DNA from: a virus
Taxonomy: Duplodnaviria; Heunggongvirae; Uroviricota; Caudoviricetes
DNA length: 64,000 nucleotides
IMG/VR virus record: IMGVR_UViG_3300032144_000002
Span: 12,575-76,574 of that record
Reading direction: 5' to 3' (one strand)
The notes beneath the pieces are model-generated. The model did no database searches. It was given only the letters and a program-made list of their open reading frames with translations, and was not told the DNA's origin. Below are positions 8,308-38,661 of the stretch, piece after piece. How positions within the stretch are numbered: the stretch's first letter is position 1; every line of letters starts with the position of its first letter. Both the position numbers and the translations under genes were made by a program.

Positions 8308-8309
8308 CC

Positions 8310-12461: not shown

Positions 12462-12472
12462 GACACGGACAC

Positions 12473-14448: not shown

Positions 14449-14463
14449 TTTGCGGAGAAGTCC

Positions 14464-16674: not shown

Positions 16675-16913
16675 TGAACAGCAACAGACTTGTAGCGGCA
16701 GCGCAGATCGCGCTGTCAATTGTCTACACGTGGGGATACTTTGATGTTCTGAAGATATTCCTCGAAGGGCGCGTGAAGACCCCGAGTGAATGGAAAGATG
16801 TTGTGACTGCGTTGATAACGCTGCTGACTGCCGGAGTCTTGATGATTCTGCAGTTCTGGTTCCTTCGCAGTCGCCAGCAGGAGGCGCCGCCGGCGCCGAA
16901 AGAATTGGGTTGA
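16671..16913 (+). CDS. Holin (class II, two TM helices)
   Basis: 80 aa with two hydrophobic helices and charged C-terminus; ATGA-coupled to endolysin. Confidence 0.55.
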   Translation: MMNSNRLVAAAQIALSIVYTWGYFDVLKIFLEGRVKTPSEWKDVVTALITLLTAGVLMILQFWFLRSRQQEAPPAPKELG

Positions 16914-16945
16914 GTAGTAAAGTGTGGAAGTAAAGGAGAGATGAC

Positions 16946-17782: not shown

Positions 17783-18258
17783 ACAGAGTCGCGCTGATCG
17801 TCGCTGCTGTCATCATTGCCGGACTGGCTATCGCGTGGCGCACTGATCGTGCCAAGTACGGAAGTCAACGGTTCGATGACGGCAAGGCGGAAGTTCAAGC
17901 GCAATGGGATGCGTCGGTGGTCAAGGCTACTGCCGATGCTCTCGTTGAAGAGGAACGAAGGAGACTATACAATGCGAGTGTTCTCGAGGAGCGCGATGCG
18001 AGGCTTGCTGCCGCTGCTGGTCGCGCCGATGATCTTGAGCGTCGGTTGCGGCGGGCACTTGCCCGCTCGTGTAGCAGCGGTGTGCCCCAAGCTGGAAGTC
18101 AGCCCGGAGCTTCTGTCGGAGTCGTCGATTCAGGAAGCGACGAGAGCGAGGGAGGAGCTTCTGAAATCGTTGCCCGAATGAAGCGGTATGACGCGGCGTG
18201 CTTGACGCTGATCGAGGATCACAGCGCCTTGATCAAGGAAGTCAAACCGCAAATGTGA
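17779..18258 (+). CDS. i-spanin (Rz-like), GTG start overlapping upstream stop
   Basis: N-terminal TM helix then highly charged coiled coil (EERRRLYNASVLEERDARLAAAAGRADDLERRLRR); contains embedded lipoprotein ORF in +1 frame. Confidence 0.6.
   Translation: MNRVALIVAAVIIAGLAIAWRTDRAKYGSQRFDDGKAEVQAQWDASVVKATADALVEEERRRLYNASVLEERDARLAAAAGRADDLERRLRRALARSCSSGVPQAGSQPGASVGVVDSGSDESEGGASEIVARMKRYDAACLTLIEDHSALIKEVKPQM
17972..18181 (+). CDS. o-spanin (Rz1-like outer-membrane lipoprotein) embedded in i-spanin gene
   Basis: MRVFSRSAMRGLLPLLVAPMILSVGCGG signal peptide with lipobox-like SVGC; GGAG RBS about 10 nt upstream of ATG 17972; entirely within 17779-18258 in another frame. Confidence 0.5.
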   Translation: MRVFSRSAMRGLLPLLVAPMILSVGCGGHLPARVAAVCPKLEVSPELLSESSIQEATRAREELLKSLPE

Positions 18259-18273
18259 GCGGGCAAAATCAAA

Positions 18274-18300
18274 GGCCCTCAGCCATGCGGGCTGAGGGCC
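18274..18300. terminator. Bidirectional intrinsic terminator between convergent arms
   Basis: Perfect 11-bp GC stem GGCCCTCAGCC-atgcg-GGCTGAGGGCC; on the minus strand it is followed by TTTGATTTTGCC (U-run), on the plus strand by TTGAT. Confidence 0.6.
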
Positions 18301-18640
18301 TTGATACGCAACAATAAGCATTGCAACGGTAACGCCCGCGCCTAGCATGCTGGCGGCCAGCATTGCAAGGGTTTATTTAACAATAATGGGCCGCGCCAGC
18401 CGGCCTAGGGGCCTCTAATGGCCGGAATGGGCGGCCCCGCCATACCGCTACGGCAGCCAGCCTAGGCAGCCTGCTAGGCCGGTGCCCGGGGCTGCTTAGG
18501 CGGGGCCTGTGCCCTACTGGCGGCCCGGTGCGGCCCCGCCAGCCGGTGCCTGCCCCGGTGCCCCGCCCCCGGGGGCGGCCCCTGTAGGTGCTAATAGGCC
18601 GGCTGGCGCGGCCCGGTTAAGGGCGCGGCAAACCGCCTGA
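18300..18640. repeat. GC-rich repeat island R1 (shares motifs with islands at about 48960-49280, 54780-55200, 63400-63550)
   Basis: Direct repeat AGCATTGCAA x2 flanking palindrome AGCATGCT; multiple CCTAGG sites; GGCCGGCTGGCGCGGCC element also present in island R2. Confidence 0.45.
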
Positions 18641-19260
18641 GCCATCTCAGCGTCGTCAGCGCGGCACACCCATGCGTTGAGCTTGTGGTCGCGCACTGAC
18701 AGGCCATCGGCTCCGATCAGGTAGCGGTCAATCGGCTCGACCGGAGGTTCGGCAGGATGCAGGTTCGAACCTTCATCGCGATGCGCGTCCCAGGTGTGTT
18801 CAAGCATCCGCCGGTTTAGCTCCGCTGCCTCGGCTTCGGGCATGACTTTGATGTCTTGCAGCCGGGTGGCGTCGATGTACCGGTCGATGACAAAGCTGGC
18901 TTCTTGCAGCTCTGCCTGATTGCCGGTGGCCTGCCACTTGAGAAGGAACCCAACGACCGTGCCTTGGTAGTAGTCGAGATCGAATAGCGCGATGATCTCG
19001 TCCAACGTGTACGCGCCATCCGGTGGCGCGTTGACGATGACAATGCGTGGGTCGCTGCAGAGCTCTACGTACTTGGCGAGGTAATGCTTGGACTTCTCCA
19101 AGTCTTGCAGACCGTTCTTGTCACGCCACCTGAACAGGTACTTGGTGATGTTGCCGACGTAGTAGCCCCATCCGTTCTTGGCCACCAGATCCCAGTGCTG
19201 CACGCTACCGCGCTTGCTGTAATGATTGCCGCCGATTTGAACCTTGTTTGCTTCGCTCAT
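18514..19260 (-). CDS. DUF3310-family phage protein (nucleotide-metabolism associated); start at internal ATG 19260 with GGAG RBS; C-terminal Gly/Ala/Pro tail runs into GC island and may be over-extended
   Basis: KVQIGGNHYSK (GGxHY-type motif) and conserved YLAKY region; track ORF extends to 19335. Confidence 0.45.
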   Translation of the reverse strand: MSEANKVQIGGNHYSKRGSVQHWDLVAKNGWGYYVGNITKYLFRWRDKNGLQDLEKSKHYLAKYVELCSDPRIVIVNAPPDGAYTLDEIIALFDLDYYQGTVVGFLLKWQATGNQAELQEASFVIDRYIDATRLQDIKVMPEAEAAELNRRMLEHTWDAHRDEGSNLHPAEPPVEPIDRYLIGADGLSVRDHKLNAWVCRADDAEMAQAVCRALNRAAPAGLLAPTGAAPGGGAPGQAPAGGAAPGRQ

Positions 19261-19574
19261 GCCAATCTCCAAACGAGCACCGCCACCAGCGCCCCTACTA
19301 TAAGACCCGCACTGACCTTCCCGATGAAGGCCCACGCACTCTCCGTCATCAGACCGACAACAGACTGTTGAACATCGGTCTCAGGTACTGAAGGCGCTGC
19401 GACTGCAGTGCCAATCTGAGCACCGCAGTCGCTGCAGCGATACATCACGCCGCCCGACAGTGTACTGATGTCAATCCACTTGCCACCGCACTTCGGTGTC
19501 TTGTGCATGTGCGCCAGATCGTCGCTGCTGAACCCGAGACGATCAAGGTCCATAGAGCGTACCATCGCGAACAC
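19257..19574 (-). CDS. Zinc-ribbon protein with C-terminal TM anchor
   Basis: CGGKW...CSDCG cysteine pairs; C-terminal AGLIVGALVAVLVW. Confidence 0.3.
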   Translation of the reverse strand: MFAMVRSMDLDRLGFSSDDLAHMHKTPKCGGKWIDISTLSGGVMYRCSDCGAQIGTAVAAPSVPETDVQQSVVGLMTESAWAFIGKVSAGLIVGALVAVLVWRLA

Positions 19575-20091
19575 GCTTGTACCGAGTAATGACCAGTTCG
19601 GTCAGCGACTGGATATTGTCCGTCAGCGGCGTCGGCTTGTCGAACTTCCATATACCGTATCGATGATCGAACATCGGATCAAGCGTGCTCAGCACGCGAT
19701 CCACCATCAACCGAGCCTGCTGATTGCCGCGTGCCCAGTCCTCAAGACAGAACATCGCCAGCTCAAGCCTGTCAGCCAGCTTGAGCAGCCACGCTTCGTC
19801 ATCCGGCAGCTTGACAGCCAAGTCGTACGTCTTGTTGACCTCTTCCTCAGCCGCCTTGTACGCTGTCCTGAACGCCGGCATGCGGTGCAGTATCGGCGAC
19901 GGTGTGTCCCCGACAATGGCCTCGGCCACGTCGTGAAAGAGCGCAGCCTGCAGCAACCGCGATGACACCTGCCCGTCGGTGAGTTCCACCAGAAGCATGC
20001 ACACCCCGAAGGTGTGCGCGCCCACGTTCTGCTGTTCGACCACCGGCATCGTGTGATATCGGATGATGCGCTGCGCGTCACGCCCGAGCAT
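19543..20091 (-). CDS. HD-domain phosphohydrolase (YfbR-like 5'-deoxynucleotidase/dNTPase family)
   Basis: RYHTMPV...NVGAHTFGV...LFHDVAEAIVGDTP: His...HD...D metal ligands of HD superfamily; start at internal ATG (track ORF start 20253 lies inside the upstream gene). Confidence 0.7.
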   Translation of the reverse strand: MLGRDAQRIIRYHTMPVVEQQNVGAHTFGVCMLLVELTDGQVSSRLLQAALFHDVAEAIVGDTPSPILHRMPAFRTAYKAAEEEVNKTYDLAVKLPDDEAWLLKLADRLELAMFCLEDWARGNQQARLMVDRVLSTLDPMFDHRYGIWKFDKPTPLTDNIQSLTELVITRYKRVRDGTLYGP

Positions 20092-20105
20092 CAGTCTCTG
20101 GCGGT

Positions 20106-21194
20106 TCACTCGACACCTCCACCACGGCGCGTCATCCACTGGATGCCAGCGAACTGCCAGTCGCAGTCTGGCATGGCGTTCTCCATGATTGCGATAGCGT
20201 TCATGGCGCGCCGGTGCTTCTCGGGCACCGAATCGTTCTTGTACACACGCCACGCCAGCCGCATCGGTTCGGCCACCTCTTTGAAGAAGCGGAAGCTGGT
20301 GCCGCGTCCTTCACAGAAGCTGACGCACTCCGCCAGCCACTTCTGCCAGTCGGCAGGCTGCAGCCCGGTGAACAGCGGGAACGTGCCGGTGCCGATATCC
20401 TGGTACGGATCGATCCGGTAGTCCGGGTTCTCGCACACATTCTTCCACGCTGGCTGATCCGTGTACACGTGGAAGCTGTCGCTCACCTGTCGGTAGATTC
20501 CGACCGGCACGCCGACGGCGCTGGCGATGAACTCCTGCAGCGTGCTGAACTGTACGATATTGGCACCATACGCGCCCCATATGATGTCGTTGCTGCGGCA
20601 GGCCACGGTCATGTCGAGCGCGCCGTCCCTGATCTTGAACATCAGCAGGTCATTGCACGGCATGTCCTTGGTCTTCCTGCCAAGATCAAGGTACGGGTTC
20701 CAGATCGACAACACCACCTGCCGCGTGCTGTGGTCCTTGCTCAGCAGGTCGATGGCCACGGCGATCTGGTCAAGCGTACCGGATTCGCTCATCGGGCCGA
20801 TGCCGGTGTCGTACTCGATGTCCGGTACATCCCAGTTCCGCAGCCGGTAGCCGTAAGGCGCATGGAACTCTTCGCCGTTGTCGCTGTACGCGGCGATGTT
20901 GGTGTTGAACTCCTTCAGGAAGGCCACGTCTTTGCGACCTGCCAGAATCCACAGACTCTCCATCAGATGGAAGAACGGGTTGGCGTCACGGTGTGGAGAC
21001 CAGAGGACACGTTCCACTGGCTCCTGGTATTCGGTGATGACAGGCCCTCGGTATTCGAGGGTCTGAAGTCCACGTGGTGAGATGTCGCGCCAGTAGTAGT
21101 CGCGGCGCGGGTCACGAAGCATCGAGCGTACCCTCGACAGGGCTTGGTTGACATTGCGAACGCGGATGATGGTCGCCTCATTCAAAGTGCTCAT
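20106..21194 (-). CDS. Thymidylate synthase (ThyA)-family pyrimidine C5 one-carbon transferase with about 90-aa N-terminal extension; substrate (dUMP/dCMP; methyl vs hydroxymethyl) not determinable by eye
   Basis: FHLMESLWILAG (folate-binding helix), VVLSIWNP, MPCNDLLMF (catalytic Cys in PCH-like motif), ACRSNDIIWG (RSCD-like) align to ThyA core. Confidence 0.8.
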   Translation of the reverse strand: MSTLNEATIIRVRNVNQALSRVRSMLRDPRRDYYWRDISPRGLQTLEYRGPVITEYQEPVERVLWSPHRDANPFFHLMESLWILAGRKDVAFLKEFNTNIAAYSDNGEEFHAPYGYRLRNWDVPDIEYDTGIGPMSESGTLDQIAVAIDLLSKDHSTRQVVLSIWNPYLDLGRKTKDMPCNDLLMFKIRDGALDMTVACRSNDIIWGAYGANIVQFSTLQEFIASAVGVPVGIYRQVSDSFHVYTDQPAWKNVCENPDYRIDPYQDIGTGTFPLFTGLQPADWQKWLAECVSFCEGRGTSFRFFKEVAEPMRLAWRVYKNDSVPEKHRRAMNAIAIMENAMPDCDWQFAGIQWMTRRGGGVE

Positions 21195-21946
21195 TAACGA
21201 ATCTCCAGCTTGGTCGGCGGTTCAATGAAAGTAACAGTCTTATCTTCCGCAATGGCCTGCGGTGTGCCCCATTCATGGAGCTGATTACGGTCGATCATGC
21301 TGGCAAGCTTCGGTCCTTCGATATACTTGAACAGCCCGGAAAGGTATGGCTCGTCATCCGGCTTTGAGTCACGACGCCACTCGGCCCACGCATCAAGAAG
21401 AATGCGTGCTGACCGAAAGAAGAATGCCCCGGCCAGCGCGTACCGAGATATCGGCTTCTTCTCAATGCCGAAGTTGAAGTCTGGGTACGCGTCGATGTAC
21501 CCGAAGCGATACTCATTGGCGTCAAACACGACAGCGCCGGCGCTGGCCTTTGAGTTCGCGTACCAGTTGTGAGCGAACGTAGTTAGCCGGTGCTCCTTGA
21601 CAGCGAATGCGTTGTCCGAGTTCACCACGAGTAGCTGGTCATAGGCGCCAATGTGCGGTGCGCATGCCAGTCGTGCGACTGTGTCAGCCTGTCCCATGCT
21701 TGCACCGACCGGAATCACAACGTAGTCGGCCGGCAGCGCCGCAGCGAACGCTTCCCAGTCCTGCGGTCTGCATCCGATCAGTGGTGCCAGTGAATCCGAC
21801 ACAGATTCAACGACGTGTTCGATCATAGTGCGCCGTTTACCACGCCAGCCCATTTTCAACAGGCCCTTCGGCTTTTGGTATCCAGCCTCGGCAAACCTCC
21901 GGCTCTCGCCGGCAGCAGGTATCAACAGTTGCAGCATATTGTCCAC
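21194..21946 (-). CDS. Sugar-1-phosphate nucleotidyltransferase (NTP_transferase family; MurU/RmlA/LicC-like)
   Basis: N-terminal LIPAAGESRRF signature (G-x-G-x-R NTP-binding loop); ATGA overlap with ThyA-like gene. Confidence 0.75.
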   Translation of the reverse strand: MDNMLQLLIPAAGESRRFAEAGYQKPKGLLKMGWRGKRRTMIEHVVESVSDSLAPLIGCRPQDWEAFAAALPADYVVIPVGASMGQADTVARLACAPHIGAYDQLLVVNSDNAFAVKEHRLTTFAHNWYANSKASAGAVVFDANEYRFGYIDAYPDFNFGIEKKPISRYALAGAFFFRSARILLDAWAEWRRDSKPDDEPYLSGLFKYIEGPKLASMIDRNQLHEWGTPQAIAEDKTVTFIEPPTKLEIR

Positions 21947-22398
21947 CCCGTAGCAGCGCGCAGATACTTCGATGATTCAACGTTGTCTTCGAACATGATG
22001 CCGGCAGTATCGTACTGATTGAGAAAGGAAGCCTTGTCCTTCACGCCACACCCGGCCAGTATGGTGCCAACCTGAAGGCGAAACTTCTCGGCCAGAAGAT
22101 AAACGGATTCATACGATGCGCCGGTCAGAATGATCGGCTGCCTGTCCGTGGCAGCAAGGTGCCTGTACAACGACAGCAACGGCAGTGCCGTGACCATGCC
22201 CTCATAGATCCTTGTCCTGTACGCGGCGGCCTTGGCCTTCCGCAACGCCTTGGCCTCTTCTTCGGTTCCCTTGAACCACTCAACGAATGGCTTGCCGAAG
22301 AAATCCAGTGGCGGTGAGACGCCAGCGTCCACATACGCTTGCCTGACAGCATCCTTGGTGTCAAGAAGAGTGCCGTCTAGGTCGAAAGCGTATCGCAC
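21922..22398 (-). CDS. HAD-superfamily phosphatase; start assigned to GTG 22398 (AGGAGG RBS), alternative in-frame ATG at 22545 lies inside upstream gene
   Basis: YAFDLDGTLLDT is HAD motif I (DxDGT); small cap-less HAD like sugar-phosphate phosphatases. Confidence 0.55.
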   Translation of the reverse strand: MRYAFDLDGTLLDTKDAVRQAYVDAGVSPPLDFFGKPFVEWFKGTEEEAKALRKAKAAAYRTRIYEGMVTALPLLSLYRHLAATDRQPIILTGASYESVYLLAEKFRLQVGTILAGCGVKDKASFLNQYDTAGIMFEDNVESSKYLRAATGWTICCNC

Positions 22399-23177
22399 AT
22401 CGCCTCCTTTGACTTGTACCTGCCATTGATGAGGACGTCGTAGATCATCGCCGCATTGCGACGGCCCCACGTATAAGCCTGTACGTCGCCGGCCTTCGTG
22501 GCGTATGGCATCAACCGCAGGCAATGCACCATGCACCAGAACCACGCACGCTCATGGTGCTCTTCAGGCAGCCGTTCGAGGATGATCGCCACGGCCGGAC
22601 GCATGTTGTACTGCCAGCCTAGACGCAGAGTTTCCCAGCCGATCGCCGACTGCAGCATCTTACCGAGATCGACCGTGGTGTCGTTTGTCACGCGGCACGA
22701 CCATATCGGATCGATGATGGCCATGCTGCCGTCTTCTCGGAACATCATGTTCGACAACGTCGGGTCGCCATGCACCATGCACCAGCTATCGAGATCGACG
22801 TGCAACCGGTTCACCAGCTGAATCGACTGGTCAAACGATTTCGGTGAGCGATCGTGCAGTTCAGCGATCAGATGCACCACGGCATCGTCCCAATCCACCG
22901 CCGGCACAGCCTTACGCCGCCACACGTTGAGATGCAGAATGTCGACGGCCAATGCGAGCATATCGCCGACGTTCTGGTCGTTCATTCGCCGGCCGAAGTG
23001 TTCGGTCGGCTCGATCAGCTTCTCCATCATGTAGCCGGTTCGCGATGCCGCTATCACACGAGGCGTAACGGGGTACATGATGCAGCAGAGCGCTGCTTGA
23101 GCACCGAGGTTGTCGCCTTCTTTCAACACGCTGCTTGCCAACGCCGTCACGTTGGCCCCACTAAAACCTTTCTTCAT
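22377..23177 (-). CDS. APH/choline-kinase-fold kinase, candidate anomeric sugar kinase (AmgK/NahK/LicA-like)
   Basis: Brenner motif HGDPTLSNMMF and IIDP (D of DFG-equivalent) typical of aminoglycoside phosphotransferase-like small-molecule kinases; start at internal ATG MKKGF (track ORF starts at 23273 inside upstream gene). Confidence 0.6.
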   Translation of the reverse strand: MKKGFSGANVTALASSVLKEGDNLGAQAALCCIMYPVTPRVIAASRTGYMMEKLIEPTEHFGRRMNDQNVGDMLALAVDILHLNVWRRKAVPAVDWDDAVVHLIAELHDRSPKSFDQSIQLVNRLHVDLDSWCMVHGDPTLSNMMFREDGSMAIIDPIWSCRVTNDTTVDLGKMLQSAIGWETLRLGWQYNMRPAVAIILERLPEEHHERAWFWCMVHCLRLMPYATKAGDVQAYTWGRRNAAMIYDVLINGRYKSKEAMCDTLST

Positions 23178-23842
23178 CGGTATGCCCACTCCGGAGGACT
23201 GTAGTCGTAACGCTTGGCCATCTTGGCGATCTTGCTGCACATGCCTGGGTCCATGTCGTACAGGTCGTTCCATGTAACCCGCTTGGCCTTGAAGATTCCG
23301 CGCGACGCGTTCTTGGCGGTCTTCGGCACCTTCGGAATACTGAATGGCGGAAGACCCAGATCATCCAGCATGTTCTCCCACACATGCTGATCTTTCATGT
23401 CTTCGAGACGATACCGATTCTTCGTCAAACGCTCGCATCGCTTGTTCACCTCGTACCACGCATGCATGGCCTTGCGCAGTTTCGGTTTGAGGTCTTTTGG
23501 AATGACGCCATGCTTCTCAAGCCACTTCTGATGCTCGGTGCCCATCGTCTTCCAGATGGAACCAATGGTCTTCAACGGATCACGCACAAGATGCAGCACA
23601 TGCTTGAATTCGTAATCGCGCATACGCTGCCCGACATGGGCTATCAGCCCCTTCGGTGGCGTCGATGGCGACAACGGGTACTTCGGCGTGTCCATGAAGA
23701 AGTAGCATGATACGGTGCCGTCTTCGAGGACGTACTCGTGACCTACCCGCAGACCGACCTCCTTCAACATCCGGCACACGTAGGTAGTGCCGCTGCGACT
23801 GTTGCCGACAATCAACACGCGCCTTTTACTTGGAGCTTTCAT
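23174..23842 (-). CDS. Sulfotransferase-family P-loop protein (Sulfotransfer_3-like); alternative: P-loop kinase
   Basis: VLIVGNSRSGTTYV (5'-PSB-like P-loop) and HLVRDPLKTIGS (RDP-x-D/x-x-S 3'-PB-like motif). Confidence 0.5.
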   Translation of the reverse strand: MKAPSKRRVLIVGNSRSGTTYVCRMLKEVGLRVGHEYVLEDGTVSCYFFMDTPKYPLSPSTPPKGLIAHVGQRMRDYEFKHVLHLVRDPLKTIGSIWKTMGTEHQKWLEKHGVIPKDLKPKLRKAMHAWYEVNKRCERLTKNRYRLEDMKDQHVWENMLDDLGLPPFSIPKVPKTAKNASRGIFKAKRVTWNDLYDMDPGMCSKIAKMAKRYDYSPPEWAYR

Positions 23843-24668
23843 ACGCTTTCTTCCACTGCACCACCACCTCTTTTCTCGGAACGGACTTCAAGTAGGCACG
23901 ATCAACGACCTTGACAAAGCCCTTGTGCAGCTTGGCCAACTTCTCGGCGTCGGCGTTGGATGCTTCCATGCTGCGTTCTTCGCTGGCACCGCCGCGCGAG
24001 TTGTAGACTTGGTCTACCGTGAGCTCAGCCAGCACGCGATTCTCCCACCCCTTGCGCAGCAGTTGCAGGCAGTAGTCCATGTCTTCACGATGCTCGATAC
24101 GCCCGAGCTTGCACTCTGCTTCCACGATAGCGCAGTCGTAGCCGAGTGCGTAGACCATGCGGTAGTTGCGCAGCCATCGCAACCTTCTGATGGTTTCGTC
24201 GACTTCAAGATCGCCGAACTTCTTACTCAGGTTACGACGCTGCAGCGCTTCAACGCGGTTATTACCTTGGCGAGTACTGATGCCGACATGGGCGTACTCT
24301 GTGAGAGCCTTACCTACTCGCCGAAGACCACGTCCCACGTCCTCAACCGTAGGCTTGACCAGCTTGGTCGGGGCTTGCGTATAGTCACGCACGCTAAACC
24401 GCAGATCATCGTCGAGCATGAGGATATAGCTGTCACGCTCGCGTGCCCACCGATCAATGATCCACGCCCGCTTGCTGGCGATGGTCGTGATCTTCTTCGG
24501 CACCACTACCATGTCGCACCCGGACTGCTTGGGTAGCCCAAGCCTTTCGAACTCGCGCGCGTCGCTGCTGTCGCAGACCAGCGTCGTCTTCTTGCGCCAC
24601 TCAGGAGGCAGCTCACGCAGCGTAATCTGTCTGGTAACGCGCCGGTATGTCGGTATGACGATTCTCAT
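23826..24668 (-). CDS. GT-A fold glycosyltransferase (DXD motif)
   Basis: SYILMLDDDLRF DXD motif preceded by hydrophobic beta-strand; N-terminal MRIVIPTYRR Rossmann start. Confidence 0.5.
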   Translation of the reverse strand: MRIVIPTYRRVTRQITLRELPPEWRKKTTLVCDSSDAREFERLGLPKQSGCDMVVVPKKITTIASKRAWIIDRWARERDSYILMLDDDLRFSVRDYTQAPTKLVKPTVEDVGRGLRRVGKALTEYAHVGISTRQGNNRVEALQRRNLSKKFGDLEVDETIRRLRWLRNYRMVYALGYDCAIVEAECKLGRIEHREDMDYCLQLLRKGWENRVLAELTVDQVYNSRGGASEERSMEASNADAEKLAKLHKGFVKVVDRAYLKSVPRKEVVVQWKKAYESSK

Positions 24669-25672
24669 TTCAATTTCCCCAATACCTTGGATATCACACT
24701 CGGGTGGTGATTGTCAAGCGTCTTCTCAACGGCACGTCGCATGTCGCGGTAGTCTGGCCAGCCGATGTTCTCCACCAGATTGACAAGCTCTTGCGCGTCG
24801 GTTACCACGTAGCAGTTCTTGTCGATCTCCATGTCGCCCTTCTCTTTGGCCCAGCGCTTGTGCAGGATGTTGATGCATCCGGCATCCATGGCCTCGAGGA
24901 ATGAGTACTGCGTACCACCACCATCGCCCGAGTAGACAGAAAGATCCACGTTGATGCGGAAGTCTTTGGCCAGTGCTACCGCCTGCGCAGATCCCACGAA
25001 ACCGATGCCCGGCTTGTAGTGCCTGTATCGGTCCATCAAGTTCATGCGCAAGAAGTGTGTAGTCTCCTTGCCAAGGAACACGATACGCTTGTCAGCCTTG
25101 AGAGCTTGATTCGCATCGCACAGCATGTACGGGTGCTTGTTCGTAGCGATCATCGCGATAGAGCATGCAGCCTTTCGACGTACCCACTGCTCCTGTGCCG
25201 CAGTGCCGAACCTGCTGCGCACATACGGATGCGGCACGTACTTCGAGCGCTTGAAGTAACCCTGCAATCGCTCGCGGATGACGAGCACGCGCTCACCAGC
25301 CTCGCGCAACTTCAGTTCTTCAAGATGCGGGAACTGCTTGAACTCCTGCGTCGACTGTACGAAGATGTAGGCGCCGGCACGGAACAGCTTCTTGACCGTG
25401 TCCTCGTCTGCGAGATCGTCCGGGCGTGCAACCGCCGTGATGAGCGTGAGATCCTTCTTTGCAGCGCGCACAGCCTGCGCCACCGTGACGTTCTGGTACA
25501 CGGTGCCGTGGTGCTTCATGGTGCGAGCGTGTCCTTCCTCGCGATCTTTGTTGCACCTCAGTACGTTCACGTCCCAGCCTTCGGCCTTCAAGCCGTGGTA
25601 CATGTGAGCAGTGAACGTGGCAAAGCCGCCAACGTTCCACGGGCTCAGGTAAATCAAATTGATCTTTGGCAT
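24665..25672 (-). CDS. GT-B fold glycosyltransferase (GT4/GT1-like)
   Basis: C-terminal FLEAMDAGCINILHK resembles the E-x7-E / EAMAAG donor-binding motif of GT4 enzymes; start at ATG MPKINLIY (track ORF starts further upstream at 25807). Confidence 0.6.
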   Translation of the reverse strand: MPKINLIYLSPWNVGGFATFTAHMYHGLKAEGWDVNVLRCNKDREEGHARTMKHHGTVYQNVTVAQAVRAAKKDLTLITAVARPDDLADEDTVKKLFRAGAYIFVQSTQEFKQFPHLEELKLREAGERVLVIRERLQGYFKRSKYVPHPYVRSRFGTAAQEQWVRRKAACSIAMIATNKHPYMLCDANQALKADKRIVFLGKETTHFLRMNLMDRYRHYKPGIGFVGSAQAVALAKDFRINVDLSVYSGDGGGTQYSFLEAMDAGCINILHKRWAKEKGDMEIDKNCYVVTDAQELVNLVENIGWPDYRDMRRAVEKTLDNHHPSVISKVLGKLK

Positions 25673-25674
25673 GG

Positions 25675-25965
25675 CTACCCTTTGTTCTTTCGATACTTCC
25701 ACATCAGGAAGAGCCAGACTGCGTTGACCGTAGTCATGGACACGCCGCCGGCAAACGACGCCCACTGGCCAAGCGACGGATAGTAGTAAAGATTCCACAC
25801 GCCCCACGCTACAAAGAACGTGGTGGCCACCTTGGAAACTCCATGAGACTTCTTGTCGATCAGCATGCGTCGAACGTTCAGCAGTGCGAACATGCTGGCC
25901 AACAGTTCGAAGCTGGCATTGATGAGGTCATTAACTTGCACGGTGCTGCACCTTCTTGAGAACAC
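25675..25965 (-). CDS. Small polytopic membrane protein (3 predicted TM helices)
   Basis: 96 aa, three hydrophobic helices, basic C-terminus; adjacent to glycosyltransferases. Confidence 0.4.
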   Translation of the reverse strand: MFSRRCSTVQVNDLINASFELLASMFALLNVRRMLIDKKSHGVSKVATTFFVAWGVWNLYYYPSLGQWASFAGGVSMTTVNAVWLFLMWKYRKNKG

Positions 25966-26236
25966 GCTTCAGCAGTCGCTTGAGCGACTCCGACTCGCCG
26001 GGCTCGAATGAACTGCCGTCATCAATCGGTTTCAACAGATGACGCGCCACTAGTAGCGTCACGCCGTCAGCGTCCGCGCGCACCGAATACATGTCCCACC
26101 TATATTTGTAGTCGCCGATTTTGCCGGGGCCGTGAAACGTGACGACTGTGCCGGTGTCACCGACGTACTTACGGCAGTCAGGATCTATATTCAAGCCGCC
26201 GATGATTCGAACACGCTGCATGGGCTTCAGCTGCAT
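25931..26236 (-). CDS. Hypothetical protein (KOW/SH3-like small beta domain?)
   Basis: Start at internal ATG MQLKPMQRVRIIGG just after upstream stop. Confidence 0.3.
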   Translation of the reverse strand: MQLKPMQRVRIIGGLNIDPDCRKYVGDTGTVVTFHGPGKIGDYKYRWDMYSVRADADGVTLLVARHLLKPIDDGSSFEPGESESLKRLLKRVLKKVQHRAS

Positions 26237-26238
26237 GA

Positions 26239-27330
26239 CTACTCCTCGTCGTCGTACACGACGCGCGGTTCGCGTGGCGGATGGTAACGGCTGCGCGGCC
26301 TGCCCTCGTCCATCTTGACCCGCATGTACTTGTCGAACTCGCATAGCGAATGCTCGATTTCACGCAGCTCAAGCGGGCAATCGACACCAGTGCGCAGGTG
26401 CTTGCGCAAATCCTCCGGCATCGCCGCTAATAGCATGCGCATCGCTTCGATGTAGTCGATGCCTCCTACCTTCGTATGCTTACCATACATCAGGCGACGG
26501 ATGCCGCGCATGGCACCGGGTCCCGGGTTGGCCCACGAAAGTACGTCCTTCGCGCGGTGCAGCACCTTGGTGAACCGCAGGTCGCAGGCCAGCTCGTAAC
26601 CGATGAATCCGCCGATGGTAGGTACACTCATCAGCACTTCAACGGCGTACTGCATTGAAGGTCCTTCGTATTGATTGGTGCCCGGTATCTTGCGGCCGCG
26701 CCGTATCTTGTTGGCCAGCTTGATCTTGCGCTTCCACACATAGTCGACTGCGTCGCAGATGACTTCGATCTTCGGGTCGTCGCGCCCGCCGTTCGGAATG
26801 ATGTACGCGCCGGTGAAGATCTGCTCGTGGTCTTCGTCCTTGCGCTTGGTGAGGATGCGTATCGCGTCCTTCTTGTCCCACTTCTTCATGCCGAAGTACA
26901 GCGCATCGTAGGTCTCTGGCAGATTGAACAGCCGGAACATCACGTTGTGAAAAAGGATGTCGCTGGCCAGAACCTTCTTGGTGCCATTAGCCGAATTGAT
27001 CAGGTTGATATAGCGGTCTTGCCAAGCTAGACTGACGCGGTCGAGCTGGCGGTACACGTTGGTGAACTTGAACTCGTTTAGGATTCGATCCTGCGTCCAT
27101 GGGTACGGCGCTTTGTCCTTGAAGCGCTTCAGGTAGATGGCGTGGCGCTCGCTCATCCAATACCAGAACAGCTTCAGCTGCGCTGCCAGAAACTTGATCT
27201 TGGGTTTCTTCTTCGGCTTCTCCACCGACTTCGGCGAGTGCTTGCTGGCTATGCCGACGCGCGTAGCCTTCAGTCTGATTACACCGCGCACCAGCTTAGC
27301 TTTCTTCTTTCGCTTCACTTGTGACCTCAC
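26239..27330 (-). CDS. Conserved hypothetical protein with Lys-rich N-terminal tail (possible nucleic-acid binding) located at the head of the modification cluster
   Basis: 363 aa; N-terminal KRKKKAKL...KPKKKPKIK; conserved-looking core WYWMSERHAIY...NVYRQLDRVS; no family recognised by eye. Confidence 0.4.
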   Translation of the reverse strand: MRSQVKRKKKAKLVRGVIRLKATRVGIASKHSPKSVEKPKKKPKIKFLAAQLKLFWYWMSERHAIYLKRFKDKAPYPWTQDRILNEFKFTNVYRQLDRVSLAWQDRYINLINSANGTKKVLASDILFHNVMFRLFNLPETYDALYFGMKKWDKKDAIRILTKRKDEDHEQIFTGAYIIPNGGRDDPKIEVICDAVDYVWKRKIKLANKIRRGRKIPGTNQYEGPSMQYAVEVLMSVPTIGGFIGYELACDLRFTKVLHRAKDVLSWANPGPGAMRGIRRLMYGKHTKVGGIDYIEAMRMLLAAMPEDLRKHLRTGVDCPLELREIEHSLCEFDKYMRVKMDEGRPRSRYHPPREPRVVYDDEE

Positions 27331-27541
27331 TTCGGAACACAGAAGGCTTTGACTCGCGTGCCGAACGGATTGTTCGCTTCGGCTGCGCGTGCGGCTACCT
27401 CGCAGGTAGTCTTGGTGGTGAACTCGGCGGTAGTAACAGCGCCGCCGCCCTCGGTCTTGATAGCGGCCAGCATGATAATCAGAACGTACATAGGTACTCC
27501 AGAAAATGGAGGGCGCCGTTGCCAGCGCCCTCCGCTGCCGA

Positions 27542-28939
27542 TTACTCGGCGACGATGAAGCCCTTCTTGATGAAGCGTGGAACCCACGTCTTCACCTTGG
27601 CCGGCGCGATGCCTTCTTCCTTGGCAGCCGCCAGCAGCTTCTTGAACGTGATGCCCGACTTGGGGATCAGTTCGTTGGCCAGCTTGGACTTCGGCCCACC
27701 GCCGGGGCGCTTCTTGCCGCGCTTCAGCTTGGTGGAATCCTCCAGCTTGAACTTGGCCGGCTTCTCAGCCTTCTCGGCCTTCGCCTTCTTGGCCGGTTTC
27801 TCGGCCTTCGCCTTCTTGCCCTTCTTCGCTCTCACTTCCTTCTCCTCGTCGTCTTCGTCGTCCTCGTCGTCCTCGCCGTCTTCCGAGTCATCGTCCTCGT
27901 CGTCGGCGTCCTTGGCCTTCTTGCCCTTGGCTTTCTTGCCCTTGGCGAAGCCCTTGGCCTTGGGCTTCTTCTTGCCCTTCTTGGGCTCTTCGTCATCCTC
28001 GTCTTCCGAGTCCTCGTCTTCCGAGTCCTCGTCTTCCGAGTCTTCGTCTTCGTCGTCCGACTCATCGTCCTCGTCGTCCGACTCGTCATCCTTGGCCTTC
28101 TTGCCACCCTTCGCCTTCTTGCCCTTCTTGCCCTTGGGCTTCTCGTCTTCGTCCTCGTCTTCCGACTCGTCGCCACCTTCGACGGTTTCTTCGTCCTCGT
28201 CTTCGTCGTCGGCCGCCTCGGCCTCCATCGCCTTCATGGATGCCTTGCGCAACTCTTCATCACTCATCTTGTCCTCCTTCGAGGGACGTTTCTTGGATTC
28301 GACGGGCCACTCATCAAGCACAGTGCGGTCCGTCAGCCGCAGCGTGCCTTTCTTCTCCACGACCTTGAATGCTTGCAGCATCAAGTGTCTGGCGAAATTG
28401 AATGCTTCAGACCATGTCTTCGTGTTCAGACCAATGGGCGCTTCATCAGCGGTCAGCGCCGTGCGTATCAGAATCGAGAGTTCGGTCCACGACAGCGCGC
28501 TCAATATCGAGATAATCTCGTACATGAACTCGCCGTCGGCCTTCTTCTCTTCCAGATACTCGCGGTACTTCGGGGGCTTGCGCTCCTTCCGCTTGCACGC
28601 ATCAATGAACTCATCAAACAAGTTGCTGGTGTAGACCGGGATCTTTTCCTCGTTGATCAACGCCAGCCGTAGGTCCTCGCCACGCAGACTGGTGCCGTGT
28701 CGCTTCTTGCTCTTGCGTCCCTGCTTGGCTTCGGCGCTGGCTTCTTGTCGGCGCTTTCCGGCTTTGCTGTACTGCTTGAGCTCTTCGCGCGTACTCGGCA
28801 CAAAGCCTTTGGTCACGGTAGAGCGCTGTTCCACTTCCAAGGTCATGCGCTCTTTGCCCTTGCGGCGTTTCTTCTTGCGAGGGCGCTCTTCTTGATCTTC
28901 TGCTTCGTCGTCCTCGTTACGCTGCTTCCCGAAACCCAT
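27542..28939 (-). CDS. Polyampholyte protein 1: folded N-terminal domain followed by about 200 aa of poly-Asp/Glu tracts alternating with Lys-rich KKGKKAK blocks
   Basis: Runs of (E/D)10-30 separated by KGKKAKGGKKAK; consistent minus-strand codon usage; mirror-strand ORFs are Ser-rich artefacts. Confidence 0.55.
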   Translation of the reverse strand: MGFGKQRNEDDEAEDQEERPRKKKRRKGKERMTLEVEQRSTVTKGFVPSTREELKQYSKAGKRRQEASAEAKQGRKSKKRHGTSLRGEDLRLALINEEKIPVYTSNLFDEFIDACKRKERKPPKYREYLEEKKADGEFMYEIISILSALSWTELSILIRTALTADEAPIGLNTKTWSEAFNFARHLMLQAFKVVEKKGTLRLTDRTVLDEWPVESKKRPSKEDKMSDEELRKASMKAMEAEAADDEDEDEETVEGGDESEDEDEDEKPKGKKGKKAKGGKKAKDDESDDEDDESDDEDEDSEDEDSEDEDSEDEDDEEPKKGKKKPKAKGFAKGKKAKGKKAKDADDEDDDSEDGEDDEDDEDDEEKEVRAKKGKKAKAEKPAKKAKAEKAEKPAKFKLEDSTKLKRGKKRPGGGPKSKLANELIPKSGITFKKLLAAAKEEGIAPAKVKTWVPRFIKKGFIVAE

Positions 28940-30401
28940 ACGTTTTCTCCATTGCTTTCAGAATGCTTCGCTGCGTCTTGTCCTTCATCTTGATGGACAA
29001 CCGCATAACTTCATCAACCGTGTTGCGTGCCAGAATCCTGTACAACAGCACGCGCCGTCGCTGGCCTTGCCGCCACACTCGCTGGTAGAACTGTTCGTAG
29101 TTCTCCAAGTTCCATGTCATGGCGTAATAGACAACTATACCACCCTTACCTTGAAGGTTCAAACCGTGCGCTATCGACTCTGGGTTGCCGAACACTACCG
29201 GGTGCTCGCCTTCTTCCCACTCGTCGATGATACGGTTGACTACCTCGTCCTTCGTACCGCCGTCTATCAGCGGCGCGTTCCAGAACTCTTTCGGCGCACC
29301 TTCCTTTTTGAAGTGCGATTGAATACGTTGATAGTCGTGCTTGAACTCGACCGCTACCAGCGCTGGCTCGCCGCTCAGCTCTTCGAGCAGGTCAAGAAGA
29401 TTTGCCTCCTTCTCATCATGTACCGTCAAGAACTTTCGCTTCTTGAGCTTGCGGTCTTTCTCCCAGTCGCCATCCATGTACCGACCGCGCTGGTCCACGA
29501 AGATACCACCGTTGGCGATCTGACGTAGCTTGCCGCTAGCGACCGCAGCATTGGCCGCCACGATCTCCCTGCTTTGCCACTGCACCACGAACTCTTCTTC
29601 AAGCTCATCGTACATCTTGCGCGCTTTGGGCGGTAGCTCAACCCATCGGTTGATCACCTTGAGTGGTGGCAGGTCAAGCTGGTCATGCCCGTAGCGAATG
29701 ACCATCGGCTTGATGCGCTTGAAGATGCGCTTCTCGCCACCGTCCTGTATCACCCACTCGCGGCCCATGTACCCAGACGGCATGAAGTAGTTGTTTCGGT
29801 ACTCCGTGATCCACTTGCCAAGCGCCGCGCCCATGTCGAGAATGAACACCTGACTGAACAGGTTCATCAGACCACGCGGAGCTGGCGAGCCGGTGCCTAT
29901 GTACCGTCTGACGAATATCGGCAGTATCTTCTTCAGCGCTCTGAATCGCTGCGTGTTGTGATTGCGCAGCCTCGATGACTCGTCTATGTGCAGCATCACC
30001 TTGCCCTTCGACTTGAGCAAGCGCTTCTGCTTCTTCAGCCACGGCAGTCCTTCGAAGTTCATCAGGTAGATGTCGGCCGGGGCCTGCAGCGCCTCCTTGC
30101 GCTTGCCATGTACGATGCTGACCTTGATGTTCTCAAGGCCCTTCCACTTCTTCACCTCACGTGGCCACACGTTCTGGATGATCTTCTTCTTTGAGATGAC
30201 GAAGAGCCGGTCAACCAGCCCTAGGTCGCGCAGTATCTTGAAGATGAACAGGATGATCGCAGTCTTGCCCAAGCCCGGCGCGAGAAAGAACCCGGCTGCC
30301 GGTCGGCTAATGCCGAACTTGATTGACTCCTTTTGGAAAGGTTTTGGTACGAAGGATTTTCTTGCAGATACTGAGCGCTTCTTTTGCCGTGTAGACCACA
30401 T
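28917..30401 (-). CDS. SNF2-family (SF2) DNA-dependent ATPase/helicase
   Basis: Walker A APGLGKT, DExH-like HIDESSRLRN, motif III GTGSPAP, C-terminal helicase domain. Confidence 0.8.
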   Translation of the reverse strand: MWSTRQKKRSVSARKSFVPKPFQKESIKFGISRPAAGFFLAPGLGKTAIILFIFKILRDLGLVDRLFVISKKKIIQNVWPREVKKWKGLENIKVSIVHGKRKEALQAPADIYLMNFEGLPWLKKQKRLLKSKGKVMLHIDESSRLRNHNTQRFRALKKILPIFVRRYIGTGSPAPRGLMNLFSQVFILDMGAALGKWITEYRNNYFMPSGYMGREWVIQDGGEKRIFKRIKPMVIRYGHDQLDLPPLKVINRWVELPPKARKMYDELEEEFVVQWQSREIVAANAAVASGKLRQIANGGIFVDQRGRYMDGDWEKDRKLKKRKFLTVHDEKEANLLDLLEELSGEPALVAVEFKHDYQRIQSHFKKEGAPKEFWNAPLIDGGTKDEVVNRIIDEWEEGEHPVVFGNPESIAHGLNLQGKGGIVVYYAMTWNLENYEQFYQRVWRQGQRRRVLLYRILARNTVDEVMRLSIKMKDKTQRSILKAMEKTYGFREAA

Positions 30402-32732: not shown

Positions 32733-33055
32733 TTCTTGAATGCCTCTTTGACTAATCCGGTCCAGTACCCGAGCTTGCTCTTGCCCCGGCCGCGCGGTGG
32801 CAGACGCTCAGTAGGAGGTTCTGGCGGTGCAGGCCGAGAGGCCGGTGCCGAAGCACCGACCTCCACGGACACGGTCCGCGTATCAACCACGCTGCTGCCG
32901 CTGACGTTGCCGCAGTACGGACAGACGCCACCAGAATCAAAGCGTTCGCGGTGATTGATCACGTGATCGCACCGCCGGCAAAGAACCCTCGCCTCGAAGC
33001 GTTTGGGCGCGTGGGTGTTGTTGGCCATGTCGATGAACCTACTTGGTTGGAACAT
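32729..33055 (-). CDS. Zinc-ribbon protein
   Basis: CRRC...CPYC. Confidence 0.3.
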   Translation of the reverse strand: MFQPSRFIDMANNTHAPKRFEARVLCRRCDHVINHRERFDSGGVCPYCGNVSGSSVVDTRTVSVEVGASAPASRPAPPEPPTERLPPRGRGKSKLGYWTGLVKEAFKK

Positions 33056-33917
33056 TCACGAACGGCACAGCGCCACCACCGAACATGTACGTCGGCAGCA
33101 CGCCGTTCCATTTCTGGACCGCTTCCCATTCCACGAGCTTGGCGTTCTGTTCGAGCGCTCTTGCACGGATGGAAATGGATTCAGCCTCGGCCTTCGCGTT
33201 CAGGATGGTGGCTTCGGCGTTGCCTCGCGCGGTTTCGATCTGCTGCGTTGCCTGCTCCTTGATCTGAACAGTTCGGTTCTGTTCTTCGATGGCCTTCTGC
33301 TCGGCGACTACCTTCGCCTCAACCGCGTTCTCGAACGCCGAAGTGTAGACGATGTCGGTCAGCTGAAAGCCGGCAACGATCACACGCCGCTTGGCCAGCG
33401 AAGCTGTGATGTTGGTCTCCATCAGACGTGTCGCAGCGTTGCGATTCTCGATCAGTGGCACCGCGTTGTGCTGCCCGACCTCACGCTTGATCTCCTCGAC
33501 CACGACCTGCCCGACCAGCTTGGCGGCCCAGTCCTCGCCGACTTCACGGTACACGAGGTGCGCGTCGGATGGCGACAGCGAGTACGTGAGCGTGAAGTTG
33601 ATGTTGGCCTGCTGCACGTCCTTGGTGTACGAGGACGTCTTGCCCTCCCACTTGAACTGGCGGATATCCATTTTCACCATGCGCTGCGTGAAGGGCATCA
33701 GGAAGTACAGGCCCTCGGGCAGCGACTGGTCACCGGGCTTGCCGAGCGTGACCTTCACGCCGCGATGGCCGGCTTCGACTGTGGTCATCGAGCATGACGC
33801 CATGATAAAGAAGAACAGAAGGCCGAGACCCAAGGCAACCCATTGCATCACGCGCCGCACGGTCTGCACCGTCTTGGCCCGCTCGATTGCCTGCATCTCT
33901 TCGTAACTGCGACTCAT
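33039..33917 (-). CDS. SPFH/band-7 (prohibitin/HflC-like) membrane protein
   Basis: N-terminal TM then HRGVKVTLGKPGDQSLPEGLYFLMPFTQRMVKMDIRQ... and C-terminal coiled coil, typical of the stomatin/prohibitin fold. Confidence 0.7.
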   Translation of the reverse strand: MSRSYEEMQAIERAKTVQTVRRVMQWVALGLGLLFFFIMASCSMTTVEAGHRGVKVTLGKPGDQSLPEGLYFLMPFTQRMVKMDIRQFKWEGKTSSYTKDVQQANINFTLTYSLSPSDAHLVYREVGEDWAAKLVGQVVVEEIKREVGQHNAVPLIENRNAATRLMETNITASLAKRRVIVAGFQLTDIVYTSAFENAVEAKVVAEQKAIEEQNRTVQIKEQATQQIETARGNAEATILNAKAEAESISIRARALEQNAKLVEWEAVQKWNGVLPTYMFGGGAVPFVNVPTK

Positions 33918-38444: not shown

Positions 38445-38661
38445 CGTCCCGTATCTCGTAGGTGCGCGACTGGAGTTCTACCAGTGGTATGTACCTGAAG
38501 TGACCGTAATGTATACCGTCAGTCCCGCGCGTACTCTGGTAGGCCCACATGCGATCTTTCGGCTGAAGCCAGTATCTCACCTGCTTGTCGATGCATCGTT
38601 CAAGCCACGCCTTGTCGCTTCCTTTGTATCTGCTGTGCAGCACTGACGGTATGTCTTCCAT
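38317..38661 (-). CDS. Hypothetical protein
   Basis: 114 aa, ATGA overlap with upstream NAMPT-like gene stop. Confidence 0.3.
   Translation of the reverse strand: MEDIPSVLHSRYKGSDKAWLERCIDKQVRYWLQPKDRMWAYQSTRGTDGIHYGHFRYIPLVELQSRTYEIRDVDGAIGIGWTDCLYNPRTRKFTHNLRDHARTRRPNGNIDYRL

Follow-up and report, generated by a model that had tools for sequence, protein, structure and literature searches.

A charge-block polyampholyte protein encoded after an SNF2-family helicase gene in the replication operon of a tailed-phage lineage

The p1 gene and its product

The 64,000-nt stretch of DNA analysed here (hereafter the window) comprises positions 12,575 to 76,574 of IMG/VR record IMGVR_UViG_3300032144_000002, a virus of the class Caudoviricetes. 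In its minus strand there is one gene, which we call p1, that encodes a 465-aa protein in which folded domains flank a long polyampholyte linker. A first-pass annotation of the sequence had proposed a folded part plus a polyampholyte encoded by a 465-aa open reading frame (ORF) on the minus strand, and the gene lies at exactly the interval given there. The gene and its immediate surroundings are as follows:

27542–28939, minus strand: p1 coding sequence, 465 aa, including the stop codon (27542–27544); identified by the ORF, a catalogued protein (P0012), codon usage and 34 homologues
28947–28950, minus strand: Shine-Dalgarno sequence GGAG, 7 nt 5′ of the p1 ATG
28917–30401, minus strand: SNF2-family helicase gene (Pfam SNF2-rel_dom and Helicase_C, PHROG 62), whose 3′ end overlaps the p1 start
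27508–27533, minus strand: intrinsic-terminator-like hairpin with an 11-bp stem (nine G–C pairs) followed by ATTTTCT, 9 nt past the p1 stop

The strand was checked, as the annotation had suggested, by ribosome-binding site and codon bias, and both favour p1. In addition to the GGAG 7 nt upstream, the codon log-odds, calculated with 15 confidently identified window genes as the reference, is 0.58 over the full length of p1 and 0.84 within its linker, compared with 0.16–0.47 for the reference genes, 0.07 and 0.17 for the two long opposite-strand ORFs (one Ser-rich, one Leu-rich), and −0.6 for the alternative minus-strand frame. Preferred codons dominate the linker (GAC 33 versus GAT 4; AAG 36 versus AAA 2) to an extent above that of the reference genes, which fits a well-expressed protein. 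Between 18.5 and 64 kb every gene lies on the minus strand, the gene calls of the source collection include the exact 465-aa product (P0012), and homologues with 25–51% identity keep both linker-flanking domains in the frame of p1. A noncoding repeat or an origin inside the gene, as in the case of lambda ori in gene O, was also considered. It was rejected, because the tandem-repeat periods of the region (3, 6, 9, 12, 15, 18, 21 and 36) are all multiples of 3, no inverted repeats or iteron-like sites were found in or beside the gene, and homologues conserve composition, not DNA sequence. The annotation had named expression of the opposite-strand Ser-rich ORF and a noncoding repeat as the outcomes that would speak against the protein; both were tested, and the data support neither. 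At the level of sequence, p1 is confirmed as a genuine, conserved coding gene on the minus strand, and its product is probably an expressed, likely abundant, protein of the phage replication operon.

A HMMER search of 1.84 billion representative proteins with the N-terminal domain retrieved 34 relatives, 27 of them at E ≤ 1e-10 and all metagenomic. Neither the whole protein nor the N-terminal domain gives a tblastn match in 50,697 phage records, p1 has no match in Pfam, PHROGs or NCBIfam, and a fold search of BFVD returned nothing at E < 0.2, bearing out the earlier remark that the protein is unusual for a phage. A profile search of the PDB gave compositional matches only. A profile built from a six-member alignment yielded one extra viral p1 locus and no match in metagenome contigs or in 185,579 species genomes, so that no prophage or host assignment could be made. 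Word-indexed protein searches, with the N-terminal domain or with a C-terminal-domain profile, missed p1 itself though it is catalogued; we deem their negatives uninformative, such negatives being unreliable for proteins rich in low-complexity sequence.

The domain map of p1 was derived from a 23-member alignment and an AlphaFold2 (AF2) model built on that alignment:

28925–28939, minus strand: N-terminal peptide MGFGK (family consensus M-[GSA]-F-x-K); the short stretch after it is charged and disordered
28682–28804, minus strand: FVPSTxEELK motif and long basic helix, aa 46–86, net charge +9 (AF2 helix 51–81; predicted local distance difference test score, pLDDT, up to 93)
28208–28681, minus strand: N-terminal helical/winged-helix domain, aa 87–244, with an LDxWPV..RKRPSKED motif and a helix at 227–244
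27740–28207, minus strand: disordered charge-block linker, aa 245–400 (156 aa), net charge −33, with three acidic blocks alternating with three K-rich blocks
27941–27955, minus strand: KGFAK, in basic block 2, containing the sole aromatic residue of the linker outside the junction with the C-terminal domain
27545–27739, minus strand: C-terminal basic winged helix, aa 401–465, net charge +12, pI 10.5, preceded by a K/A/P-rich tract

Residues 1–244 are of ordinary composition, and M1 and F3 of the N-terminal peptide are conserved in at least 90% of the aligned sequences. Residues 87–210 are predicted to form a helical domain that ends in a helix-helix-helix-hairpin winged-helix unit (pLDDT 90–98), while residues 401–465 are predicted to form a β-H-H-H-β winged helix (pLDDT >90), in which an H1-H2-H3 bundle is accompanied by a β wing. 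The winged-helix structural matches of p1 include Fur, MarR, BlaI/MecI and the activation domain of T4 MotA. The first-pass annotation was right about a folded N-terminal part followed by acidic runs alternating with KKGKKAK-type blocks, and missed the folded C-terminal domain at aa 401–465. The charge layout, comprising basic helix, acidic linker and basic winged helix, is kept in at least 20 homologues, and the net charge across the family is +3 to +12 for the basic helix and +5 to +11 for the C-terminal winged helix (58 residues). Stand-alone proteins of 76–101 aa that combine a short T/K-rich N-terminus with a p1-type C-terminal winged helix are encoded in the early regions of related phages (L007 3515–3760, plus strand; P0049–P0051; L085 8825–9058), indicating that the C-terminal domain is an independent module.

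The linker starts with DEDEDEE..., continues with KPKGKKGKKAKGGKKAK, DDESDDEDDESDDEDEDSEDEDSEDEDSEDEDDEE, PKKGKKKPKAKGFAKGKKAKGKKAK, DADDEDDDSEDGEDDEDDEDDEE and KEVRAKKGKKAKAEKPAKKAKAEKAEKPAK, and is followed by 65 ordinary residues. Its acidic blocks comprise 23–34 aa with net charges of −18 to −29, and its KKGKKAK-type basic blocks comprise 13–22 aa with net charges of +6 to +12. The longest pure D/E run has 11 residues and Ser or Gly interrupt the blocks, so the earlier description of the acidic runs as uninterrupted was slightly overstated; at 465 aa, the protein is giant only in a relative sense. Residues 249–395 have pLDDT values below 50 in the AF2 model, i.e. they are predicted to be disordered, and the domains on either side are folded, which answers the earlier suggestion of a disorder and structure prediction. 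Over residues 220–399, the charged fraction is 0.68, the net charge per residue is −0.19, and kappa, which describes charge segregation, is 0.55. Two hundred shuffles of the same residues give a mean kappa of 0.15 and a maximum of 0.25, indicating that the block pattern, beyond the composition, is far from chance. Only two ORFs in the window, p1 and the p2 gene described below, contain a 30-aa stretch that is at least 70% charged. A charged single α-helix was considered for the linker and rejected, since the linker contains Pro, its blocks are of excessive length and Asp content, and the AF2 model shows no helix there.

Across the family, the linkers range from ~40 to ~220 aa, with one to five acidic blocks of 20–45 residues and basic blocks of 10–22 residues. 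Kappa stays at 0.5–0.7 in about 20 members despite this variation in length, and the net charge is −6 to −73, apart from the short-linker members P0046–P0048. In the closest relative (L089, N-terminal domain 61% identical to that of p1), there are likewise three acidic and three basic blocks, with block lengths of 37/16/37/21/20 compared with 27/13/34/22/23 in p1, and KGFAKGKK occurs in the second basic block of both. Aromatic residues are nearly absent from the family linkers; those that do occur are almost all Phe in the setting [GRKS]-F-[GA]-[KG] (in the wider form, [GRKS]F[GAS][KG]) within a basic block, as seen in 9 of 28. Judged from these comparisons of sequences, the linker is under constraint, and this constraint is not on length.

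All seven Ser residues of the p1 linker (27740–28207, minus strand) sit within acidic runs (SDDE, SEDE) and are encoded by TCG codons. The linkers of homologues have the same pattern, which resembles the acidophilic kinase sites of nucleolar proteins. An APH/Bud32-like kinase is encoded at 22377–23273, and we found no evidence tying it to these residues.

The p2 protein and the F-G-K peptide

The second protein of this kind was placed at 43420–44724 by the first-pass annotation; it exists, and its real start is at 44652, which shortens it to 410 aa:

43420–44652, minus strand: p2, 410 aa, identical to P0001, with an AGAGGA ribosome-binding site
43423–43443, minus strand: p2 tip GSRFSKK, following an OB-fold-like (oligonucleotide/oligosaccharide-binding) domain with four invariant Cys (aa 1–234) and a charge-block tail (aa 235–403)

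The tail of p2 has a kappa of 0.66, and the linkers of p1 and p2 together span net charges per residue of −0.19 to −0.27 and kappa values of 0.55–0.66. Ten close homologues of p2 share a conserved 235-aa N-terminal domain with the four invariant Cys. Their tails are 96–179 aa long, and in nine of the ten they comprise 135–179 aa and are strongly block-patterned, the exception being P0004, with a tail of 96 aa and a kappa of 0.31. The tip, K-G-S-R-F-[GS]-K, is invariant in all ten.

The N-terminal domain of p2 is widespread, occurring in 106 viral contigs and in cultured phages that infect Pseudomonas, Stenotrophomonas, Xanthomonas and Rhizobium. Its annotation is hypothetical in every case, and its gene adjoins the polymerase gene in Stenotrophomonas phage AXL3, where this was checked. 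In distant relatives, the tail comprises 20–30 mildly acidic residues and ends with ...SDRF, ...NPKY, ...SNKY or ...GGKF, and the tail terminus of about 70 distant homologues reads ...[KR][FY]. Proteins of the single-stranded DNA-binding (SSB) type are typified by a tail that is short and acidic and has an aromatic residue at its end. Specifically, E. coli SSB, T7 gp2.5 and T4 gp32 combine a DNA-binding fold with a disordered acidic tail and a terminal docking peptide that contains an essential aromatic residue, and their tails compete with DNA and recruit partners. The OB-like fold of p2 and the family's tails ending in [KR][FY] fit this plan, and p2 itself has a disordered tail and a conserved tip with an aromatic residue; its assignment as an SSB-type protein with an OB fold is only moderately supported. 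There are clear differences, however: the tails described here comprise 135–180 aa with interleaved lysine blocks, whereas SSB-type tails comprise 20–60 aa and are either acidic throughout or rich in Gly and Pro; in place of an acidic docking peptide there is a basic one (K-G-S-R-F-G-K); and p1 has no OB fold.

Among the 80 loci kept, charge-block p2 tails (119–174 aa) are present in only four (L005–L008). The two of these with enough downstream sequence both carry p1, 7–9 kb away, while no p1 homologue was found within 10 kb of the 76 short-tailed versions, indicating that the charge-block tail of p2 is a lineage-specific elaboration that accompanies p1. A correlation between the lengths of the p1 linker and the p2 tail was looked for in the three genomes with both, and no clear one was found.

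One short motif recurs in the two proteins, as GSRFGK at the tip of p2, MGFGK at the N-terminus of p1 and KGFAK in a basic block of p1 (KSRFGKK in L006). It can be written as [GS]-F-[GA]-K and stands in a basic context in both proteins. Sequences regarded as F-G-K peptides are MGFGKQRNEDDE, PKAKGFAKGKKAK, RKGSRFSKK and MSFAKNNSRDGS. A related start, M-[GSA]-F-x-[KR] leading into disordered sequence that is basic or rich in Ser, is present in the primase-helicase (MSFAKNN in the window, MGFKDKV in L085), in an AAA ATPase (MAFKFPN in the window, MGFAKKG in L008) and in the SNF2 helicases of relatives (MSFSRLRK in L007, MSFTRAKKR in L088). Such a start may be a shared docking or address peptide. 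Its positions are:

62811–62825, 53690–53704 and 28925–28939, minus strand: M-[GSA]-F-x-[KR] starts in the window
L085 140, L008 2006, L007 17097 and L088 3147: M-[GSA]-F-x-[KR] starts in related loci

Operon position and phage genome

The p1 gene follows the SNF2 helicase gene and precedes a 5-hydroxymethyldeoxyuridine (5-hmdU) DNA kinase gene in all seven loci with enough flanking sequence (the window, L002, L004, L006, L007, L088 and L089):

26239–27318, minus strand: 5-hmdU DNA kinase gene (Pfam HMUDK_hel, E = 5e-53), with which the large genes of the next (DNA hypermodification) unit begin

Wherever the locus reaches far enough, the order ligase, gp157-like, p2, PolA, PD-(D/E)XK, SNF2, p1, HMUDK (the 5-hmdU DNA kinase) and TET-associated glycosyltransferase (TAGT) is kept. 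The p1 gene begins before the SNF2 stop, with an overlap of 23 nt in the window and 26 nt in L088 (contig SRR12022136_949), and hairpins comparably strong to that of the window lie 3′ of the p1 homologue in all six other loci. The SNF2-p1 order together with the hairpin after p1 indicates that p1 is the last gene of the replication transcription unit, and p1 is probably not part of the DNA-modification unit downstream. An additional 80-aa ORF lies between the SNF2 gene and the p1 homologue in L002, and the SNF2 helicase gene of the same locus (5403–7763; ERZ28533175 NODE_214) contains an intein (Intein_splicing, Hint_2).

The minus strand of the window encodes a primase-helicase (DUF3854/DUF5906), a ligase, a Gp157-like protein, p2, a family-A DNA polymerase, a PD-(D/E)XK nuclease, the SNF2 helicase and p1, while the plus strand from 1 to 18.3 kb encodes a tape-measure protein, a baseplate hub and tail proteins of the gene transfer agent (GTA) type. 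The closest cultured polymerases, at 37% identity, are those of Stenotrophomonas phage AXL3 and Pseudoxanthomonas phage PW916, i.e. there is no close cultured phage, and the tail proteins match mostly phages of Caulobacter, Rhodobacter, Brevundimonas and Xanthomonas, at less than 30% identity. These matches indicate that the host is a proteobacterium of uncertain class. An identical phage (100% over 9.6 kb) is present in run SRR9694932.

The minus-strand cluster at 18514–27318 is a thymidine-hypermodification cluster, comprising the 5-hmdU DNA kinase, TAGT, a thymidylate-synthase-like enzyme (the probable deoxyuridine monophosphate hydroxymethylase), a MobA-like nucleotidyltransferase, the APH/Bud32-like kinase and DUF3310; the identical contig L001 carries a YfbR/HD-type phosphohydrolase along with this cluster. 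The DNA of the phage probably carries hypermodified, perhaps glycosylated, thymidine (compare PMC5889632, PMC8989533). The 5-hmdU DNA kinase has a lysine-rich N-terminal extension of 42 aa (VKRKKKAKLVRG...KPKKKPKIK; 27193–27318, minus strand), which is absent in the L088 orthologue and short in L002 and L004. Possible binding partners of this extension are DNA and the acidic blocks of p1 and p2. A trend between its length and that of the p1 linker was seen in four genomes only, and was dropped as resting on too few.

Several further genes were noted. Genes for a NAMPT-like nicotinamide/nicotinate phosphoribosyltransferase and a ribose-phosphate pyrophosphokinase-like protein (38661–41587, minus strand), between the polymerase gene and p2, look like a phage salvage module for nicotinamide adenine dinucleotide (NAD+), perhaps one that counters NAD+-depleting defences. 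An SPFH/Band 7 family protein (33039–33917, minus strand) is an unusual cargo gene in the replication region, and FkbM-type and class-24 methyltransferase genes and a family-2 glycosyltransferase gene (89–3034, plus strand) lie immediately upstream of the tail module. Downstream of its helicase gene, AXL3 (L086) encodes two hypothetical proteins (6163–6762 and 7274–7921, minus strand), each with a basic linker rich in K and A and, at the C-terminus, a small helical domain bearing a weak resemblance to the C-terminal domain of p1. They were dropped as evidence, since hhalign comparison with the C-terminal domain of p1 gave E = 0.006 (probability 6%) and E = 0.16; they may be distant analogues without acidic blocks, the match being not significant.

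Proposed role of p1 and its alternatives

We tentatively propose that p1 associates with the replisome and serves replicating phage DNA as an electrostatic scaffold or adaptor, possibly a condensate-forming one. In this proposal, the basic modules of p1 (helix 46–86 and the C-terminal winged helix) would bind nucleic acid, while the acidic blocks would compete with DNA for these modules, much as SSB-type proteins use their acidic tails, and would pair in trans with lysine blocks, be they those of p1, p2 or further phage proteins with basic tails. Multivalent assemblies sensitive to salt, possibly a condensate, would result and would concentrate the replisome on phage DNA. Through the F-G-K peptides, p1 and p2, and with them several replication proteins, would dock onto a common hub, as modelled on the acidic tails of T7 gp2.5 and gp4, which end in Phe. 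These two tails have one motif in common and use one docking site on T7 polymerase, and the tail of gp2.5 competes with DNA for its own binding groove (PMC12339929). E. coli SSB phase-separates via its linker and tip (PMC7584906), and the RNase E condensates of alphaproteobacteria are driven by alternating charge clusters, whose basic blocks are reported to pair with RNA or with acidic blocks (PMC13616956).

The C-terminal region of RNase E, which is the scaffold of the BR-bodies (ribonucleoprotein bodies in bacteria), is, like the charged regions of p1 and p2, long and disordered, with alternating acidic and basic clusters and an excess of negative charge. There is no homology, however: the RNase E match (4oxp_A, E = 0.008) is confined to the linker and compositional. 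RNase E serves RNA decay in the host, while p1 belongs to a phage replication operon and has winged helices at both ends, and condensation of p1 is only predicted. As a functional class, charge-block condensate scaffolds accommodate p1, with its disorder, its alternating clusters and its net negative charge. Nucleophosmin, nucleoplasmin and nucleolin also resemble p1 in that acidic and basic tracts alternate and Ser residues lie within acidic runs, and the top sequence matches of p1 in the PDB (8as5, E = 1e-5; 8vhi, E = 1e-4) are nucleophosmin and nucleoplasmin; these matches fall wholly in the low-complexity stretch. In contrast to nucleoplasmin, p1 has no match to Pfam Nucleoplasmin and no pentameric β-sandwich core, and in contrast to nucleolin, it has no match to RNA-recognition motifs (RRMs), no Gly/Arg-rich (GAR) domain, and a winged helix at its C-terminus. 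The earlier comparison with nucleolin and nucleoplasmin is therefore apt for the composition and wrong for the fold, which is helical/winged-helix without a β-core or RRMs. The related idea of a histone-chaperone-like factor gained no support: a search of the window for a basic, histone-like partner found none, and the very basic ORFs there look like wrong-frame artefacts. Linker histones H1 and H5 share with p1 a winged helix beside a K/A/P-rich tract (KPAKKAKAEKAEKPAK, directly upstream of the C-terminal winged helix of p1), but p1 has no match to Pfam Linker_histone, the order of tract and domain is reversed, and p1 contains large acidic blocks; a linker-histone match in BFVD was not significant (E = 4.4). 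A packaged counter-ion protein, also suggested at first, is disfavoured by the position of the gene, which lies outside the structural module (1–18300, plus strand), shares a transcript with replication genes and has a terminator after it.

The nearest alternative, which we rate as somewhat unlikely, is that p1 is an accessory subunit of the SNF2 helicase that targets or regulates the helicase on forks or on SSB-coated DNA, the linker acting mainly as a flexible tether; it overlaps the scaffold proposal and needs no condensate or scaffold role. The position after SNF2 at all seven loci, the terminator after p1, and the 23- and 26-nt overlaps, which suggest translational coupling, are what such a subunit would lead one to expect. 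Against it, the resemblance of p1 to the C-terminal domain of RPA32, a recruiter of the SNF2-family protein SMARCAL1, is that of a generic winged helix; RPA32C binds basic peptides, and the p1 domain is itself strongly basic (+12). Moreover, L002 has the 80-aa ORF between the two genes, related phages such as AXL3 have the helicase without p1, and the gain of the same tail type by p2 would be left unexplained. Another possibility, which we regard as improbable, is that the polyampholyte is a largely neutral product of replication slippage (in-frame GAx/AAG expansion) and that function resides in the two folded domains only. Tandem DNA repeats with periods of 9–36 do run through the p1 linker, the length and block number vary widely, and some homologues are short and lack acidic blocks. 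Nevertheless, p1 and its L089 relative retain three acidic and three basic blocks of similar lengths together with KGFAKGKK, the blockiness is retained in about 20 members, a similar block layout arose in the unrelated p2 of the same lineage, and the codon choice in the linker is more optimal than that of the reference genes.

A nucleic-acid mimic or decoy, whose acidic blocks sequester host restriction or defence nucleases, nucleoid proteins or, like the delta subunit of Gram-positive bacteria, RNA polymerase, would account for the long D/E runs and the net charge of −33, and the phage does invest in anti-restriction through DNA hypermodification. A small domain of DNA-binding type with a long polyanionic disordered tail that contacts basic tracts and competes with nucleic acid is known from RNA polymerase delta (RpoE) of Firmicutes and from HMGB-type proteins. 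The architecture of delta is a winged helix and an acidic disordered tail with a lysine tract, and delta is a match of p1; the match is compositional only, and the N-terminal HARE-HTH domain of delta finds no counterpart in p1. The DNA-mimic or anti-restriction function put forward in the first-pass annotation fits p1 poorly in other respects, too. Known mimics are folded acidic surfaces, whereas the linker is disordered, one-quarter lysine, with its acidic blocks interleaved with lysine blocks and flanked by strongly basic modules; p1 has neither the sequence or fold nor the rigid acidic surface of Ocr and ArdA, and no similarity to other known mimics. The gene lies within the replication operon after SNF2 in 7/7 loci, not among early host-takeover genes, and the same tail type is found on the SSB-like replication protein p2. 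We therefore consider a decoy very unlikely. Equally hard to credit is a transcription factor or origin-binding initiator, whose winged helices would recognise middle or late promoter or origin sites: although winged helices of regulators (Fur, MarR, BlaI/MecI, the T4 MotA activation domain) are among the structural matches and there is no obvious separate initiator or phage-specific transcription factor in the window, the gene and its borders hold only coding repeats in multiples of 3, without inverted repeats or iteron-like sites, and the DUF3854/DUF5906 primase-helicase probably provides initiation.

Several observations count against the scaffold proposal itself. DNA binding, partner binding and condensation of p1 are proposals that we infer by analogy, winged helices can be purely protein-binding modules, and fold searches with the N-terminal domain returned no functionally informative structural neighbour. 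The enrichment of M[GSA]F at gene starts is modest (3 of 76 window genes against a dipeptide background of 0.0084, p = 0.027), and the homologues that repeat it are not phylogenetically independent. In addition, p1 and a long-tailed p2 occur together in only three genomes, and the linkers of P0046–P0048 consist of ~40 neutral or basic residues without acidic blocks, which, together with the range of linker lengths, indicates that the polyampholyte is not essential to the core function of the family.

A bolder extension of the scaffold proposal, which we think unlikely, is that this phage lineage builds a membraneless replication (perhaps also DNA-modification) factory by complex coacervation, with p1 (charge blocks between two winged helices) and p2 (OB fold, charge blocks, tip) as co-evolved scaffolds, trans pairing between their acidic and lysine blocks, and the F-G-K peptide as an address label that recruits client enzymes. 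If true, the factory would be a phage-encoded counterpart of nucleolar or BR-body organisation.

To our knowledge, phage proteins seldom contain long disordered regions. The best-known charge-block polyampholytes are nucleolar proteins and alphaproteobacterial RNase E, and our search of the literature found nothing on such tails of phage replication proteins. In the lineage described here, a region of this type and the same short, putative docking peptide are shared by two replication proteins that are unrelated to each other. By this likeness, p1 and p2 would join known kinds of protein, namely DNA-binding proteins with competing charged tails and charge-block scaffolds, a functional placement that we infer. 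Read with the greatest caution, p1 still defines a new conserved, unannotated phage protein family with a clear domain map, a fixed operon position and testable motifs. If the replisome is organised electrostatically, the phage would offer a compact, sequence-defined system for charge patterning in viral replication compartments of bacteria and for how SSB-type tails become elaborated.

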